A DNA stretch of 64,000 bases. Source: a virus. The stretch spans positions 64,001 through 128,000 of IMG/VR virus record IMGVR_UViG_3300010165_000001, one strand, 5' to 3'. The notes under the pieces are model-generated. The model did not search any database and was not told the DNA's origin. It worked only from the letters and a program-made list of their open reading frames with translations. A program made the translations under genes and the position numbers. Positions 1 through 61,733 of the stretch are shown here, piece by piece; the first letter of the stretch is position 1; each line of letters opens with the position of its first letter.

Positions 1-752
1 CACTCAAAATCTGATTTGTATAAAGGTATTGTTACTCCTTGACCATTCTTCCAACTTAGAGATGTTACTAGAGCTTTACTTCCTTCTAAGTCTGGTCTTA
101 ATGAATTGGTTTCTAAATCCCATGCAGTTATATCTACACCATCATTCTCATCTTGTTTAACTTCTTTAGTAAATATTTCTCTTACTCTTTCAATATTATC
201 TACAAACTCATATTTAACTTCTTTAGGTTTAAAGACTTCTTCACCGTTTTGTACGTATCTTTCTAATATGTCCATATCAGCTAAGACTTGTCTTTCACTG
301 TTTTTATTTACATTTGTGTATTCAATACTGTATGTTGGTAGTACCCAAGTAGAAACTTCCCCTATATCTATCTTTTTAGGAACCCCTCTAACAGAACCTA
401 ACTTAGTTACATTCAATAACATCTTAATACCTAATTTACCTGTAGGTACTATAATATCTGGTTTAATTTCTTCTATTCTAGCTTTAAGTTCTTCCATGAA
501 AGGTTTAGCTTCTGTTAGCTTTACATCTTCATATTTGATAACCTTACCATAGTTATTGTAAATAGGTTGAGGAATTTGATTATATACATAGTCAAATACA
601 TAGTCTTTACGTTGTCCATCTCTTCTTAAACTTGTTGTTGATTCTATAACTTGTTTAAATGTTTTACCATTCTGTGTTTGCAAGTATTTCCAATGTCCAT
701 TATTGTCGTAATGGTCTATTCTAATAAAGTCTAATAAAAATAAAACTTTCAT
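1..752 (-). CDS. Family A (PolA-like) DNA polymerase, N-terminal ~250 aa only; the gene continues past the left edge
   Basis: Absent from the ORF track because it is open at nt 1. The minus-strand ATG at 752-750 overlaps the TAA of the upstream gene (TAATG). My translation, MKVLFLLDFIRIDHYDNNGHWKYLQTQNGK..., stays open to nt 1. It contains ..DENDGVDITAWDLETNSLRPD.., the DxE ExoI motif of 3'-5' exonuclease domains. Confidence 0.75.
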   Translation of the reverse strand, partial: MKVLFLLDFIRIDHYDNNGHWKYLQTQNGKTFKQVIESTTSLRRDGQRKDYVFDYVYNQIPQPIYNNYGKVIKYEDVKLTEAKPFMEELKARIEEIKPDIIVPTGKLGIKMLLNVTKLGSVRGVPKKIDIGEVSTWVLPTYSIEYTNVNKNSERQVLADMDILERYVQNGEEVFKPKEVKYEFVDNIERVREIFTKEVKQDENDGVDITAWDLETNSLRPDLEGSKALVTSLSWKNGQGVTIPLYKSDFE

Positions 753-47077: not shown

Positions 47078-47172
47078 AATATAAACACTTTCTCCTCTTC
47101 TTAGTAATTAATTTTTTCCTTTTACATATCTAATATAGCACGCAATAATATTATTCTATCCTATTTATATTA

Positions 47173-47200
47173 ATTATATCATATTATTTATGTATAACAA
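47173..47200 (-). promoter_or_regulatory. Sigma-A-type promoter for the chaperone/tape-measure operon
   Basis: On the minus strand: TTGTTA, a 16-nt spacer, then TGATATAAT (TG-extended -10). It lies between the terminator at 47210-47240 and the 47077 start. Confidence 0.5.
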
Positions 47201-47209
47201 AATAGGAAT

Positions 47210-47240
47210 AAAAAAAAGACCTAGAAATTAATCTAGGTCT
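47210..47240 (-). terminator. Rho-independent terminator after tail tube exon 3
   Basis: An 8-bp stem, agacctag/ctaggtct (47217-47224 / 47233-47240), is followed on the minus strand by T8. It lies 17 nt after the TAA at 47257-47259. Confidence 0.75.
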
Positions 47241-47256
47241 AAAATATTCTAAAATA

Positions 47257-48262
47257 TTATGAGGCTTTATCTGATGCTGTAAGATAAGAAACAATTTTGT
47301 TACGAATAGAATCGTTATTTCTATCCTTCTATATGTTTCCATATAGTTCAGACTATATCATCACCTTAAAATTGAAGGTGTCTCCCATTTCCAATCACTT
47401 GATTGTACGTCCGCAGACTAGTCGTTGCACGTTCTCTTGTTTTAAGAGCTTCGCTCATGATTGCCCTCAACATTACTTGTTAGGGGTTTCCATGAATTAG
47501 AGAGATTTGCTATAACCATTTCTGATTATAGGAGCTTTTTACCTACTCAATACTTTCTGTAATCATTTCATTGGTATTAATTTCTTCGTCCAATATCTTC
47601 ATACAAGGTCGTTAATCTTGTACAGTTCTCTAATGAACTTCTCTATGTTTCCATAGATGATGAGACTATATCACAATCCTATAAGGATTCTTTTCTTTTC
47701 CATTTAACAAGGGTTTATTTGGTAATTACCCAACACCTTGACCACTTGGTTGTACACTTACTCCCTTTGAATAATCAATTAGGTTTCTGTTAGTCGTTTG
47801 GCATTTATGATTCTAGGAATCAATTTAGCACAGGATTGCCATATACTTAATGTACTTAGGTTTCCCTGTTTAGAAAAGTTTTTCGATAAGGATTACTCCT
47901 TAAAGCTACAACTTATTATAGTTATTTGCGCTGCAACCATGATAAGCTATGATTACACTCTTAGTTAAGTTATCTACAACTAAAATGTCGATAACATCTT
48001 TTTTAAGGATTTCTTCACCTAAAGAAGCATATCCTAATTTTGCGAAGTTTTCTTTTTTCATTCGTAATCTTTCTATCGTCACTGTACCTTCATATCTAAG
48101 GTAAACGTGTTCTTGTGGCATGATAGAACCAATTTCATATACGCCCTCAGTACCGTATTCACGTGTACCTGAAGCTGATTGAGCTCTGCCTACAATTTTA
48201 CCCTTAATCATTAGATAGACGGTATTACCAGTGTGAATACTTTGTTTAGCTTCACTTGCCAT
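47257..48262 (-). CDS. Tail tube protein, split into three exons (47918..48262, 47545..47590, 47257..47291); the spliced product is 141 aa
   Basis: The track ORF 47906..48262 ends prematurely at ..CSANNYNKL*. The downstream pieces encode DEEINTNEMITESIE and (F)SYLTASDKAS*. Together these restore the C-terminus I remember from the 142-aa phage K tube protein (..NNYNETWQTNEIVTEEIEFSYLTASDKART). Confidence 0.8.
47292..47544 (-). ncRNA. Group I intron 2 in the tail tube gene (ORF-less, 253 nt)
   Basis: Minus-strand elements: IGS GCTC pairing with exon GAGT, P2 CTATAA/TTATAG, GGCAATCATGAGCGAAGCTC, R GTGCAACGACTAG (47419-47430), S GATGATATAGTCTGAAC (47346-47362), and the hairpin CTATATGGAAACATATAG. 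It ends ..AAAATTG. It resembles, from memory, the crystallised Twort orf142-I2 ribozyme almost block for block. Confidence 0.85.
47591..47917 (-). ncRNA. Group I intron 1 in the tail tube gene (ORF-less, ~327 nt)
   Basis: Minus-strand core elements: CAGGGAAACC..GGCAATCCTGTGCTAA, R-like GCCAAACGACTAAC (47791-47802), S-like GTGATATAGTCTC (47662-47674), and a GAAA-capped hairpin CTATGGAAACATAG. The terminal nucleotide is G (47591). The P1 hairpin CTAT|AATAAGTTGTAG places a U.G pair at the splice site. Boundaries are +/- a few nt. Confidence 0.8.
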
Positions 48263-48302
48263 CTATATTCACTCTCCTATTTTGTTTAACTTTTTCATAA
48301 TA

Positions 48303-48325
48303 GGAGTACCTAATCTAGGTACTCC
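48303..48325 (-). other. Intergenic 10-bp stem-loop between the sheath and tube genes
   Basis: The stem is ggagtaccta/taggtactcc with a 3-nt loop. No T-run follows on the minus strand, so this is not a classic terminator. It may be an mRNA stability or processing element. Confidence 0.3.
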
Positions 48326-48331
48326 ACTAGA

Positions 48332-50101
48332 TTAGGCTTGTAATTGTTGTTCTTTATAAACCAATGATACAGTAATTTTTTTCAATGTTCTGATTGGGAA
48401 TACTGTCATTGAGATACGTGCTTCTTTACCTTCAATAATAACTTGTACGTCTTCTGGTGTGAAATCTTGGATTTCATGGTCACGTTTTTTACGTTCAAGA
48501 TAAGACTGAATAAAGTCTTTGATAATTGAAGGACTTGTTTCTGTTGTTCTAGTACCGATGAAGTTATCATCAAGTAAGATTTTAAGTTCAGAACTTAAGA
48601 AGTCGTTTTCTTCACCAATTGCCATTTCAGATTTAACAGGGTCTCTTGTATCATTGTATGTTGTAACGTCATCTACAATACGGAAACGAGTGTTTAATCT
48701 GTCACGAACGAATTCGATAGATACAACACCGTTTTCGTTTAATTGGTCTAAGTCTGAGGATTCATAAACTTGGTCTAATGAATTAATACGGAAGTTCTTG
48801 AATGTGATTGACTCACCAATATCTAGTCCACTTACTAAACCACCAATAGCTGCTGCTACCATATATGCAGGTACATGGTTTCTACGTCCATCTCCCATCA
48901 TAAATGTACCAGAGTTAGCTATAAGCGTAACACGTGGATTTACTAGAGCTGAAGCACGACCAATTAATTGTTCTTTTGCTTCATTAAACCCTGCACCAAC
49001 AATAGCTCTCATTGGTTCTCCTGCATCTGAACGTGAAGTTACAAAATGTGCAACCTCTGCGTGTACAGATTGTCTAGAACTTAGTGGTACAATGTAGTAT
49101 CCACCTTCATGAGCAAATTTATCTAATTTTTCTGACCAAGTGCTTGGAGGTGTTCCATTTGTTCCGCCTTGTAAGTTAGATAATTCAAATGGTTCAATGT
49201 CTTGTACAGATACAGTACTTCCTGCTGATACTTCAGCACTACTTTCACCTGCTTCTACACTTACATCGCTTGGAGAATCTTGTTGTCCTTCTGTACGTTC
49301 AATTGATATTGCTTGGTCATATTTTGTTTGATTTAAAATATCACCGAAGATTGCTGTTACATAAACCCCATCTTCAACTTTAATATCTACATCTTTAGCT
49401 TCATCTAAATACTTAGTTTCTAAGTCTTTATTTCCGAATGGTGATAATGTAGCTTTAAAGCTTGGTAAGTTGTTTACGTCTTTAATGATGTCATTCGTAT
49501 ATTCATATACACCTTCACCTAGTGCATAGTTTCTTACTTCTGAACCATCTTCACTTAAGATTAGGTTTGTAGCTTCACCAGTTTCTTTATTATGTTTAAC
49601 TGTATAAGTACCTTGACCTTCTCCTGTATATTCTAATTTGAAGATATTACCAATATTATCGTAAGTGTTACGAATACGGTCTTTATCAAAGATAACTTTC
49701 AAACGGTAAGAATCTGTGATAGTGTTTTCTTCTAAAGCAACTTGAATGTCATTAGAGTCTACACCATAGATTTTAGATTTAAAAGTTAATCCACCTTTAG
49801 TTAGTGTTGCAGGTTCTGCATCTTCAATACGCATTGCTAAAATAGTTCCTGCTGTAAATTGTGGGTTTGTAGTCCATGCTAAGTGAATAGCATCTACTAA
49901 TTCTCCTGAACGGAAAATTTGTTCAGCTTGTGAATAATTTCGTAATTCATATACTGTGTTAGGTTCCCCACCTTCAGCTTGTCCAATTAAGCAAAGAATC
50001 TTCTCACTTGAACTTGCTGAACCACCAATACCTGACGTATCTACATTTATTTCTGTATGTGGACGGGTGATAGGGATTCTTGGAAATACACTTTCAGCCA
50101 T
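48332..50101 (-). CDS. Tail sheath protein
   Basis: 589 aa. The N-terminus, MAESVFPRIPITRPHTEINVDTSGIGG.., resembles the phage K sheath N-terminus I remember (587 aa). It lies directly upstream of the tube gene. Confidence 0.85.
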   Translation of the reverse strand: MAESVFPRIPITRPHTEINVDTSGIGGSASSSEKILCLIGQAEGGEPNTVYELRNYSQAEQIFRSGELVDAIHLAWTTNPQFTAGTILAMRIEDAEPATLTKGGLTFKSKIYGVDSNDIQVALEENTITDSYRLKVIFDKDRIRNTYDNIGNIFKLEYTGEGQGTYTVKHNKETGEATNLILSEDGSEVRNYALGEGVYEYTNDIIKDVNNLPSFKATLSPFGNKDLETKYLDEAKDVDIKVEDGVYVTAIFGDILNQTKYDQAISIERTEGQQDSPSDVSVEAGESSAEVSAGSTVSVQDIEPFELSNLQGGTNGTPPSTWSEKLDKFAHEGGYYIVPLSSRQSVHAEVAHFVTSRSDAGEPMRAIVGAGFNEAKEQLIGRASALVNPRVTLIANSGTFMMGDGRRNHVPAYMVAAAIGGLVSGLDIGESITFKNFRINSLDQVYESSDLDQLNENGVVSIEFVRDRLNTRFRIVDDVTTYNDTRDPVKSEMAIGEENDFLSSELKILLDDNFIGTRTTETSPSIIKDFIQSYLERKKRDHEIQDFTPEDVQVIIEGKEARISMTVFPIRTLKKITVSLVYKEQQLQA

Positions 50102-58967: not shown

Positions 58968-61733
58968 TTATTTAATTGAACCCCAAAGCTTTCCTAAGCC
59001 TTGATTTGGAGGAGCTACGCCATTCCATGTACGTATAGGAAGATAATATCTTTTCCCTTTCCAAGTATAACCTACCCACACTAAAAAATCTTGCAACATA
59101 ACTTCATCATAATCACAGTAACCTCCTGGTTGGAAGTTATAAGCTACTGGACAACTTCTAAATGGACCAGTTGTTCTAACTACAATAGGTTGATTACCAT
59201 TAGTAAATCTAGCTTTCTCACTCATATACCACGTACCATAACTATTACGTTTCCATTTTCCTGCTACAGTTGATTTAGTATTACTTGCAGAACCTGTTTT
59301 ATTAGATACAGTAGCTGTTGGTACTTTACCTGCTTGATAAGCTCTGATTTGCTTGATGAAATAATCTTTAAGTTTAAGTTGTATTGCTTTTGAAGGTACG
59401 CCTTGTGTCACAGGGTCGAAACCAGTGTGTAGTTTCATACTTCTGTGAGGGCAGCTAGTCTGTGAAAATTCCATATGGAGTCTCACTGTATTACGGTTGG
59501 CTTTTAACCCCCACTTATTTAATAAACGTGCAGTTTCTTGAAATGCTGCTTGTTCATTTGCTAGGAATACTTTATCACTTGCACCAATAGATTGACATAT
59601 CTCTATACCATAATAATTTTTATTACCATTTTGGTTAGCTGTATGCCATGCTATACGACTTTCTGGTAGTGCTTGATATACTGTATTACCACTGATATAT
59701 GAATGAGCTACACCTGCTTCTAATCGAGATAAAGGTGCATTTACTAATCCATTATGATACGCTTCTGCTGTTGCACCTACACTACCCGCATCATTGTGTA
59801 GAACAATGCCTTTAGGTGTATATCCACGATTAGGTAAACGATAACCTTTTACTTCATCACGAATATAAGTTAGTTTTTTAGCTTTTTTCTTAGCTGTTGA
59901 TTTTTTAGTTGTTGTTTTTTTAGTTGTTGTTTTTTTAGTTGTTGTTTTTTTACTTGGAGTTTTCGTTTTTGCCTCTTCTTTGTAATATGGTCTAATGAAC
60001 CATTGAGGAAAATCGTATGTGTGTGTTACTCTTGTTGCTGCTTCCCAACCTGTTCCTCCTTTAGCTGAACCGCTTGTCCAACCTCCGCCTTGCCAATTCT
60101 GGTCAAGACTTACAAACTTCATTAAGTTTCCGTCAGCATTTCCATTTAAAACTATAGATACGTGACCATACCCGCCACCGTAGGATGAGTTAAAAATTGC
60201 CAAGTCACCTGGTTTAGCTTTAAATGAAGATGTATTATTATATACCTTAGCTATACCTTTAAAATTATTTGAGTTAGGTATGTCTTTTGCTCCTACACCT
60301 TTAAGACTTAAACCAAATAATTTATTCCAATATTCGTTAGCTAGGTCAAAACACTGGTACCCGTACCCGATATGTTTACTAAGAACCCTTTCCATTTATA
60401 TATTTCTATATAAACTTGTATAAATTCATAGTGATTATTAATTAATCCTTATAGGTTTCCTATAAGACCAGACTATATCATTATATAGGTTAAATAAATT
60501 TAAAAGTATACTTTTTTCCCTCTATGTTTTTACAGAATTCCCTTTTTCCTTCTGCTACTTCTTTAATATGACTTAGTGTAGCTATATTTAAAGACCTTTT
60601 TACCTCAGCCATAGATTTATATTCTTTATTTGTCTCAAAACAATAAAATTTAAGTGTTCCTCTACCATCTTTATAATACTTATCATATATATTATACCTT
60701 TTTGCTAAAGTTATTACATAACCTAGGTCTACATTATATTTTTTAGATATTTGAAAAGCATTTATACCTTTTTTGTAATCTTCTAGTATTTTCAATATAT
60801 TCATATCTTTACCTTCTATTATAAGTTCTAGTATACTTTCTTTTCTTTTTCATCTATCGAAGGTAAAATACTCTCTTTTATTGAATCCTCTATATATTTA
60901 AAATAACTTTTAGAACAATCGAGTTCAACTAATTTTATATTATTTTCTTCACAATACTGTCTTTTTTCTTCATCAGATTGTTTAGTATTTTTATAAGAAT
61001 CTACCCAATTAGAACTAATATTATTTGTATAATGTTGTTCACCATGTGTTTCGATTGCTATGTTTAGTTTTGGTAAATAAAAATCTATAAATCTATTTTT
61101 ATTGTGAAGTTTATATTGATGTTCAAATTCTATATCTTTAGTCTTTAAATAAGAATATATAAATCTTTCAGGGTAGCTCATGTAGTCTTTACAGTAAGGA
61201 CAAGAAAAACCATTATTATATAAGTTATGTGCCCGAACCTTCTTTTCATATTTACAAATAGGACATACACAATCTATATACCTATCACTACCTCTACTGT
61301 AGTATTTTGCATCATTTTTATTTTTAAAATATTTTAATAAATGTGTTTCATTATAGAGGGAATTTTCTTTTTTTTACTCTTATGTTTTCACCTTTAAATT
61401 TCATTTTACATTTCTCCTATATACTCATCACTGTCCGTCAATTGACGATACTTAGTCGTTGAACCTTATTCTTCTTTCACTATATCATGAGAATAAATTA
61501 ATGTCAATAGTTAATCCAAAGAATCTTGGCTGCTGATTGCCTAATCCTTAGTATTTTTGAACTATCACGCTTACCGTTACCAGTTACGTTGTAGTTACTA
61601 AGGCTCTAAAGGGTTCCCAGCAATTCAATGAGTTTTACATGGACTCGTAAGTTAATCCATCAAAATCTATTTTCTTACCTTCTAAACTTTTGACAAATGC
61701 TACTGCTTCTTTTTCTGTGAGTTTTGCAACCAT
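58968..61733 (-). CDS. Endolysin (CHAP, amidase_2, SH3b), split into exon 1 (61655..61733) and exon 2 (58968..60367); the spliced product is ~492 aa
   Basis: Exon 1 (ATG at 61733, 2 nt after the holin stop) encodes [26 protein letters not shown]. Exon 2 continues [13 protein letters not shown].. (CHAP Cys), GYGHVSIV (CHAP His), an amidase domain ([22 protein letters not shown]) and an SH3b tail. The joined product reads DFDG(W/L)YGYQC, a canonical CHAP N-terminus. Confidence 0.85.
59885..59960 (-). repeat. 15-bp in-frame tandem repeat encoding the (KKTTT)n inter-domain linker of the endolysin
   Basis: ttttttagttgttgt occurs three times exactly (59901-59945), flanked by degenerate copies. The encoded protein is [26 protein letters not shown]. 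Confidence 0.8.
60490..60804 (-). CDS. Intron ORF 2: HTH plus NUMOD-like DNA-binding module, typical of homing-endonuclease C-termini
   Basis: 104 aa. It has an N-terminal HTH (..[27 protein letters not shown]..) followed by [31 protein letters not shown].., which resembles NUMOD1/IENR-type modules. Confidence 0.55.
   Translation of the reverse strand: MNILKILEDYKKGINAFQISKKYNVDLGYVITLAKRYNIYDKYYKDGRGTLKFYCFETNKEYKSMAEVKRSLNIATLSHIKEVAEGKREFCKNIEGKKYTFKFI
60828..61404 (-). pseudogene. Intron ORF 1: zinc-ribbon plus Vsr/DUF559-like PD-(D/E)XK homing endonuclease, with its frame broken at an A8 run
   Basis: AGGAGA-N8-ATG (61404) opens [12 protein letters not shown]. After the A8 run (61368-61375) this frame hits TAA at 61351-61353. 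The +1 frame continues [71 protein letters not shown].. to 60828. The track shows only the part from the internal Met at 61181. Confidence 0.55.

Follow-up and report, generated by a model that had tools for sequence, protein, structure and literature searches.

The window analysed here is a 64,000-nucleotide (nt) stretch of viral DNA (IMG/VR record IMGVR_UViG_3300010165_000001, positions 64,001 to 128,000), in which the tail tube gene is split by two group I introns that lack an endonuclease gene and that flank an exon of 46 nt, and we put at roughly 0.9 the probability that the transcript is spliced to give a tail tube protein of 141 amino acids (aa). We read the minus strand of 47100..48400, on which the gene consists, in order, of exon 1 (345 nt), intron A (327 nt), exon 2 (46 nt), intron B (253 nt) and exon 3 (35 nt), and we cut and joined the exons at the coordinates proposed in a first-pass annotation of the same DNA, which proved exact for all five segments and for the 141-aa join. 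The three joined exons form a 426-nt frame encoding MASEAKQ...SANNY/DEEINTNEMITESIE/FSYLTASDKAS* (slashes mark the exon junctions). In the list of open reading frames (ORFs) the gene is present as a 118-aa ORF at 47906..48262 (-) that ends in ..HGCSANNYNKL*.

The window derives from a Twort-like Staphylococcus myovirus, the nearest relative of which is Baoshanvirus vB_SurM-PSU4 (97.7% identity over 93% of 24 kilobases). The spliced protein matched one solved structure, PDB 8q01 ('Tail tube protein', 142 aa, phage 812), over residues 1-140 without a gap (E 1.4e-77), and the sheath ORF (589 aa, 48332..50101) lies directly upstream of the tube gene; a full-length match to a solved protein and a place right after the sheath gene together identify the product as a Herelleviridae tail tube protein, which is how the first-pass annotation had read the 118-aa ORF. 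No Pfam family matched this protein. Using tblastn with the spliced protein, we found 761 matching records among 50,697 phage records. The intron-less Kayvirus proteins (ISP, Sb-1 and A5W tmpA) share 86-87% identity with it over residues 1-140, in line with the collinearity with the phage K protein (ISP/K, 86%) stated in the first-pass annotation, and the protein of JDF86 is 99.3% identical in one piece over residues 1-136. By megablast the locus is the orthologue of Twort orf142 (AF132670, described as 'contains group 1 introns'), a gene that a newer Twort record labels tail tube protein, and it is also the orthologue of Kayvirus tmpA.

The presence of the two introns is confirmed, far beyond chance. 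The whole window was scanned with Rfam and gave three matches at gathering level, two of which belong to RF00028 (Intron_gpI, gathering score 50 bits): 47927..47641 (-) for intron A, with 75.2 bits (E 2.8e-17), and 47561..47329 (-) for intron B, with 96.4 bits (E 1.3e-23). Twort I1, the homologue of intron A, reached 63.6 bits on the same scan, below intron A itself. The core motifs quoted in the first-pass annotation are all present and align to the Rfam consensus, GGCAATCCTGTGC/GGCAATCATGAGC being P5'-P4'-P6, ..AACGACTA.. being J6/7-P7, GATATAGTC being J8/7-P7' and the GAAA-capped hairpin being P9. No endonuclease ORF was found within either intron, the longest ORFs having 35 aa (sense) and 67 aa (antisense, with a TTG start), and the four short ORFs in the introns had no Pfam match. 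The earlier statement that the introns carry no sense-strand ORF is loosely true: intron B does hold an ATG ORF of 35 aa (47473..47366), but this is far too short for a homing endonuclease. The introns had also been described as richer in G+C than their flanks, which they are not: their G+C fractions (0.33 for intron A and 0.36 for intron B) resemble those of exon 1 (0.35) and of the sheath gene (0.33-0.40), and exceed only that of the downstream intergenic region (0.21-0.28).

The intron boundaries were mapped by aligning the locus with six relatives and by pairwise blastn. Intron A is precisely missing from phiSA_BS1, whose sequence is 98.3% identical up to 47918, resumes at 47590 and reads AACTAT/GACGAAGAA (AACTAT/GACGAA); it is absent from JDF86 as well. 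Both JDF86 and ISP read ..GAGT/TTTCTTATC.. through the site of intron B and lack this intron. Neither boundary can be slid, since each intron starts with a base other than the one that starts the following exon and ends with a base other than the one that ends the exon before it, and because intron-less alleles exist in near-identical phages both junctions are fixed to the nucleotide. For both introns the 5' exon ends in U and the intron ends in G (G47591 and G47292). Excision restores an uninterrupted frame collinear with JDF86 (99.3%), with ISP/K (86%) and with PDB 8q01, and the translation of exon 2 is identical to the contiguous sequence of phiSA_BS1, JDF86, Golestan101-M and PSU4.

The conserved core of group I introns, comprising P3-P8, P4-P6 and P7 (the guanosine-binding helix, pseudoknotted with P3), was found in both introns and is backed by covariation. 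For intron B, we aligned 13 homologues, which represent four insertion sites and include 10 nt of flanking exon per side, and drew on the window copy a structure made of P1, P2, P3, P4, P5/5a, P6/6a, the pseudoknotted P7, P7.1, P7.2, P8, P9, P9.1 and P10. Standard pairs occupy 94.2% of the cells of this alignment, whereas in controls with the 3' partners shifted by 1-3 columns the figure is 34-43%; both sides have changed in 38 of the 74 pairs, and none of 500 shuffles reached the observed covariation score. P1 is 100% paired in the 13 sequences, three of its four pairs covary with the exon context, and its U.G pair is invariant (13/13), as is P7.

The alignment for intron A combined four tube-gene copies with two related nrdE introns, the endonuclease ORF having been cut out of one of the latter. 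RNAalifold, unaided, recovered P1 through P9.2, with compensatory changes in 41 of 81 pairs; once P7 and P9.1 were added, 95.8% of the cells were paired, compared with 37-44% in the slid controls, and 41 of 91 pairs covaried. P7 is invariant and paired in all six sequences, the helices inside it showing compensatory changes, and the U.G pair of P1 is likewise invariant (6/6), with compensatory changes in the nrdE relatives. P1 covaries with the exon between members of an intron family that occupy different sites or genes, and the U.G pair never varies. The P1 pairings proposed earlier (CUAU/GUAG and GAGU/GCUC, with the U.G at the junction) are confirmed and covary in relatives; the Rfam test and the alignment to the Twort introns and intron-less tube genes, which the first-pass annotation had put forward as checks, likewise came out in its favour, with both spacers above gathering, the junctions fixed and intron A 79% identical to Twort I1.

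We propose that the sheath and tube genes would be transcribed together, through both introns, up to the terminator at 47240..47217, which starts 17 nt past the stop codon of exon 3; the terminator scan found none between the end of the 118-aa ORF and 47240, and the same hairpin stands 3' of the tube gene in JDF86, BS1 and Twort. Each intron would then fold into the standard group I core (P3-P8, P4-P6 and P7, with P7.1/P7.2 extensions), and its guide would pair with the last bases of the exon before it (CUAU.GUAG in intron A, GAGU.GCUC in intron B), placing a U.G wobble at the cleavage site. After attack on this site by a free guanosine, the G that ends the intron (47591 or 47292) would occupy the same pocket, and a short P10 (GUU/GAC or AAA/UUU) would position the next exon for ligation, the two splicing reactions being, on this model, mutually independent. 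Ligation of 345, 46 and 35 nt would yield the 426-nt frame and the 141-aa tail tube protein. There is an in-frame UAG at +10 to +12 of intron A (47908..47906), inside the guide sequence, and an in-frame stop U/AG straddles the 5' splice site of intron B; these stops would bar ribosomes from the ribozyme cores.

Several points weigh against this reading. The putative P10 has only 3 base pairs in each intron (GUU/GAC in A, AAA/UUU in B) and is only partly conserved, being paired in 66.7% of the cells of the intron B family and amounting by inspection to 2-3 base pairs in the intron A family, and P1 of intron B has only 4 base pairs. The exact allele occurs in no database record, so that its viability has no cross-check there. 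We infer splicing in infected cells, and its efficiency, because the introns are homologous to the self-splicing introns of Twort and the tube protein is essential; the Twort orf142 introns are reported to self-splice, as PMC10136302 relates in citing Landthaler and Shub 1999. It could also be argued that the introns have decayed and no longer splice, the gene being a pseudogene or yielding only the 118-aa product, in a defective phage or an assembly artefact. The GenBank records of several relatives would agree with this, as they annotate only a truncated ORF (393 nt in phiSA_BS1, 339 nt in Golestan101-M and PSU4, 366 nt in phage 110), but these relatives are isolated, plaque-forming phages, and because they form plaques the truncated annotation reflects unjoined exons and not biology. 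Moreover, no core helix is broken in the window copies, the intron-less alleles have exactly the residues that exons 2 and 3 encode, with the frame kept, and the C-terminal 26 residues belong to the solved tube protein (PDB 8q01). We hold decay to be very unlikely.

Exon skipping, suggested in the first-pass annotation, would join exon 1 to exon 3 and produce a second, 150-aa isoform, frameshifted through the terminator over its final 35 residues (FLILQHQIKPHNILEYFRPRLISRSFFYSYFVIHK). The 46 nt of exon 2 do not make up a whole number of codons, so the product would indeed be distinct, and there are published cases of skipping both in Twort orf142 and in a polymerase gene of Bastillevirinae (PMC10136302, PMC11878797). 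The exon left out in Twort has 23 nt and is flanked by I2 and I3 (PMC10136302). I2 and I3 share 72% identity, and because both have the guide GUGC and follow an exon that ends in GCAU, the end of Twort exon 2 can dock in I3. By contrast, introns A and B of the window are 53% identical, with guides GUAG and GCUC and exon ends CUAU and GAGU, differences that leave the U.G as the sole pair between the end of exon 1 and the guide of intron B. Nor is exon 3 (UUU) matched by GUU, the P10 guide of intron A, and the frameshifted tail enters the terminator hairpin and matches no known protein. The sequence thus gives no support to skipping, which we regard as very unlikely, and splicing of both introns to the 141-aa protein remains the reading that we prefer; it implies that the tube gene should be annotated as a three-exon join of 141 aa in place of the 118-aa ORF.

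Table. Features of the tail tube locus (positions in the window) and intron insertion sites in the tube genes of Twortvirinae
Feature	Position	Strand	Description
Ribosome binding site	48272..48278	-	AGGAGAG, 9 nt upstream of the tail tube ATG; read from the sequence
Tail tube exon 1	47918..48262	-	345 nt, codons 1-115, ends ..AAC UAU; tblastn with the intron-less ISP protein covers residues 1-115
Intron A	47591..47917	-	327 nt, group I, at the Twort orf142-I1 site, without endonuclease ORF; omega-G at 47591
Intron A P1	47906..47921	-	exon CUAU + intron AA (47921..47916) with UUGUAG (47911..47906); U47918.G47909 is the splice-site wobble
Intron A P7	47664..47795	-	GACUA 47795..47791 with UAGUC 47668..47664; encloses the P7.1/P7.2 extension, P3' and P8
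Intron A P9/P9.1/P9.2	47601..47659	-	P9 with GAAA loop 47659..47641; P9.1 47639..47624; P9.2 47623..47601
Exon 2 (micro-exon)	47545..47590	-	46 nt; DEEINTNEMITESIE + first nt of a Phe codon
Intron B	47292..47544	-	253 nt, group I with P7.1/P7.2, without endonuclease ORF; omega-G at 47292
Intron B P1 and P10 guide	47532..47548	-	exon GAGU 47548..47545 with GCUC 47535..47532; AAA 47538..47536 with exon 3 start UUU 47291..47289
Intron B P7	47351..47423	-	GACUA 47423..47419 with UAGUC 47355..47351; encloses P7.1, P7.2, P3' and P8
Intron B P9/P9.1	47305..47346	-	P9 with GAAA loop 47346..47329; P9.1 47325..47305
Exon 3	47257..47291	-	35 nt: last two nt of the Phe codon, SYLTASDKAS, stop UAA
Intrinsic terminator	47209..47240	-	9-base-pair stem AGACCUAGA/UCUAGGUCU + U run; terminator scan
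Site D	codon 110		Golestan101-M, PSU4, EW15, CF5
Site A	after codon 115		window, Twort I1, phage 110, CIFT_MRSA28
Site A2	codon 119		812, CF5
Site E	after ATCGT		CIFT_MRSA28, CF5
Site B'	5 nt upstream of B		Twort I2
Site B	after GAGT		window, BS1, phage 110, 812, EW15, CF5, CIFT_MRSA28
Site C	after GCAT		Twort I3, JDF86, Golestan101-M, PSU4, CIFT_MRSA28

Twort orf142, the tail tube gene of that phage, in which three group I introns are reported (PMC11878797, PMC10136302), had been cited in the first-pass annotation as a precedent; the two-intron reading holds, but the relationship is closer than was thought, the gene being the orthologue of orf142 and not a mere analogue. Intron A lies at the exact site of I1 (after ..AAC UAU, codon 115), with the same P1 (CUAU/GUAG) and 79% identity, and intron B has the fold of I2, with 75% identity; all these introns are endonuclease-less. 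By contrast, the window has two introns and Twort three, the I3 site being empty in the window, and intron B is inserted 5 nt downstream of the I2 site, with guide GCUC instead of GUGC. The Twort exons reconstructed from AF132670 measure 345, 41, 23 and 20 nt, which is the expected 142 aa, and the 23-nt exon agrees with PMC10136302. Intron B is not at the Twort I2 site, because exon 2 has 41 nt in Twort and 46 nt in the window. Intron B does not belong to the group of Twort I2, which falls with introns that occupy the I3 site in other phages (84-87% identity). As a separate observation, Twort I2 (L001 1070..1321) is closer to these I3-site introns than to Twort I3 (72%), with the common guide GUGC and 5' exon end AGCAU, which suggests that I2 may be a site C intron transposed to a nearby look-alike site.

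The two-intron, micro-exon arrangement is not new. Sepunavirus phages (phage 110, OQ448195; vB_SepM_BE04; phiIPLA-C1C; PG-2021_1) have ORF-less introns at the same two sites around the same 46-nt exon 2, and the record of phage 110 annotates Intron_gpI twice; its introns A and B are, respectively, 80% and 86% identical to those of the window, and its tube gene is followed by a 329-aa ORF with a NUMOD-like endonuclease DNA-binding domain that is absent from the window. Judging from these records, the kind of element, the gene, both sites and the layout of two introns around a 46-nt exon are already known, and no new mechanism emerges. The distribution of introns in Twortvirinae has been called well documented (PMC11878797), and five kayviruses, phage 812 among them, have been described as having non-coding introns in the tube gene (PMC6445280). 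In phage 812, two ORF-less group I introns likewise surround a micro-exon of the same gene and the second, at site B, is 80% identical to intron B, but the first, at codon 119, belongs to another lineage (59% identity to intron A), exon 2 has ~36 nt, and the nuclease gene I-812I follows the tube gene. Intron A also resembles the nrdE introns of Twortvirinae (qdsa001, S2G3), with 71-77% identity, the same architecture and compensatory changes, but those introns occupy another host gene, use the guide GCAC pairing with GUGU, and contain an ORF for a homing endonuclease, placed either in P6 or behind P9.

The Baoshanvirus phages (phiSA_BS1/BS2, JDF86, Golestan101-M and PSU4) belong to the same genus-level genome group as the window, and their flanks are 93-98% identical to it. 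phiSA_BS1 has intron B only, with 98% identity to the window copy, JDF86 has a single intron at the Twort I3 site, and Golestan101-M and PSU4, which have introns at codon 110 and at the I3 site, possess an extra 311-aa ORF behind them; intron A was found in none of the Baoshanvirus relatives examined (BS1, JDF86, Golestan101-M and PSU4). On this comparison, the combination of introns A and B is new within Baoshanvirus, all sequenced members of which differ in their intron sets, and our literature search found no paper on Baoshanvirus introns. The allele itself is absent from the phage records, the best match with both introns having ~81% identity, and no database copy of intron A exceeds ~81% identity over most of its length. 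A degenerate exon 2 pattern and an exact pattern of the exon 1/intron A junction gave 0 matches in the viral collection, and the exact pattern gave 0 in the genome collection.

The homology with PSU4 (L012 11069..12749) breaks at site D (47935) and resumes just past the tube stop (47250), so that 47250..47935 of the window corresponds in PSU4 and Golestan101-M to a different intron pair and to the 311-aa ORF (with a weak DUF2726 match, below cut-off), which is absent from the window. An annotated nuclease stands at the same place downstream of the tube gene in 812 and CF5.

Mapping the exons by hand against the intron-less ISP sequence, we located at least seven insertion sites in the last ~100 nt of the tube gene across Twortvirinae (Table), and the silviaviruses CIFT_MRSA28 and CF5 have four introns each. 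Across genera, the introns group according to where they are inserted: intron A shares 77-82% identity with other site A introns, the values for Twort I1, phage 110 A and CIFT_MRSA28 A being 79-81%, and intron B 78-98% with other site B introns. For following the gain, loss and site-hopping of ORF-less group I introns, the 3' end of the tube gene thus offers a good natural system. Annotated or putative nucleases are encoded right after the tube gene in PSU4, Golestan101-M, phage 110, 812 and CF5. One speculative and rather unlikely explanation of this hot spot is that the introns are not neutral passengers but are kept because they break the target sites of free-standing nucleases, in which case the window phage would have kept the immunity and lost the nuclease. 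If this were true, an intron-bearing tube gene would resist cleavage in mixed infections, and the patchwork of at least seven sites would be the footprint of conflict between phages ('collaborative homing', marker exclusion).

At site A2, the edges of the intron in phage 812 (L009, EF136582; ~445..749) and in CF5 (L011; 1189..1493) cannot obey the two group I rules together and keep Trp119 as well. P1 (GAGACAU/GUGUCUC) sets a U.G pair after ACAU, and the frame that keeps the Trp (ACA UGG CAG) needs the 3' exon GGCAG, so the intron would end in A; if it ended at the next G instead, the last base of the 5' exon would have to be C and the Trp would be lost, giving 141 aa. P10 (CUGCUGU) fits both registers and P7 is unchanged. 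The 426-nt orf103 listed in PMC6445280 fits the Trp-deleted 141-aa register of 812.

As for public annotations, the relatives carry a single truncated ORF that runs into the first intron (L002 1639..2031, L004 1639..1977, L012 10742..11080 and L003 1522..1887), and in JDF86 (L005 1201..1620) the truncated ORF runs into the site C intron, again with no joined coding sequence. When ten relatives were scanned with Rfam, L002, L004 and L010 gave no group I match, though they hold introns 98% identical to ones scoring 90-96 bits; this is probably an effect of the filter or of the tool, and the introns of these three were mapped by alignment and not by Rfam score. Elsewhere in the window, Rfam RF02897 (Staphylococcus small RNA (sRNA) S808) matched 59149..59403 (-) with 80.2 bits (gathering score 76); an ORF of 475 aa on that strand (58968..60395) contains the whole match, which suggests that the S808 'sRNA' family may partly derive from phage coding sequence.

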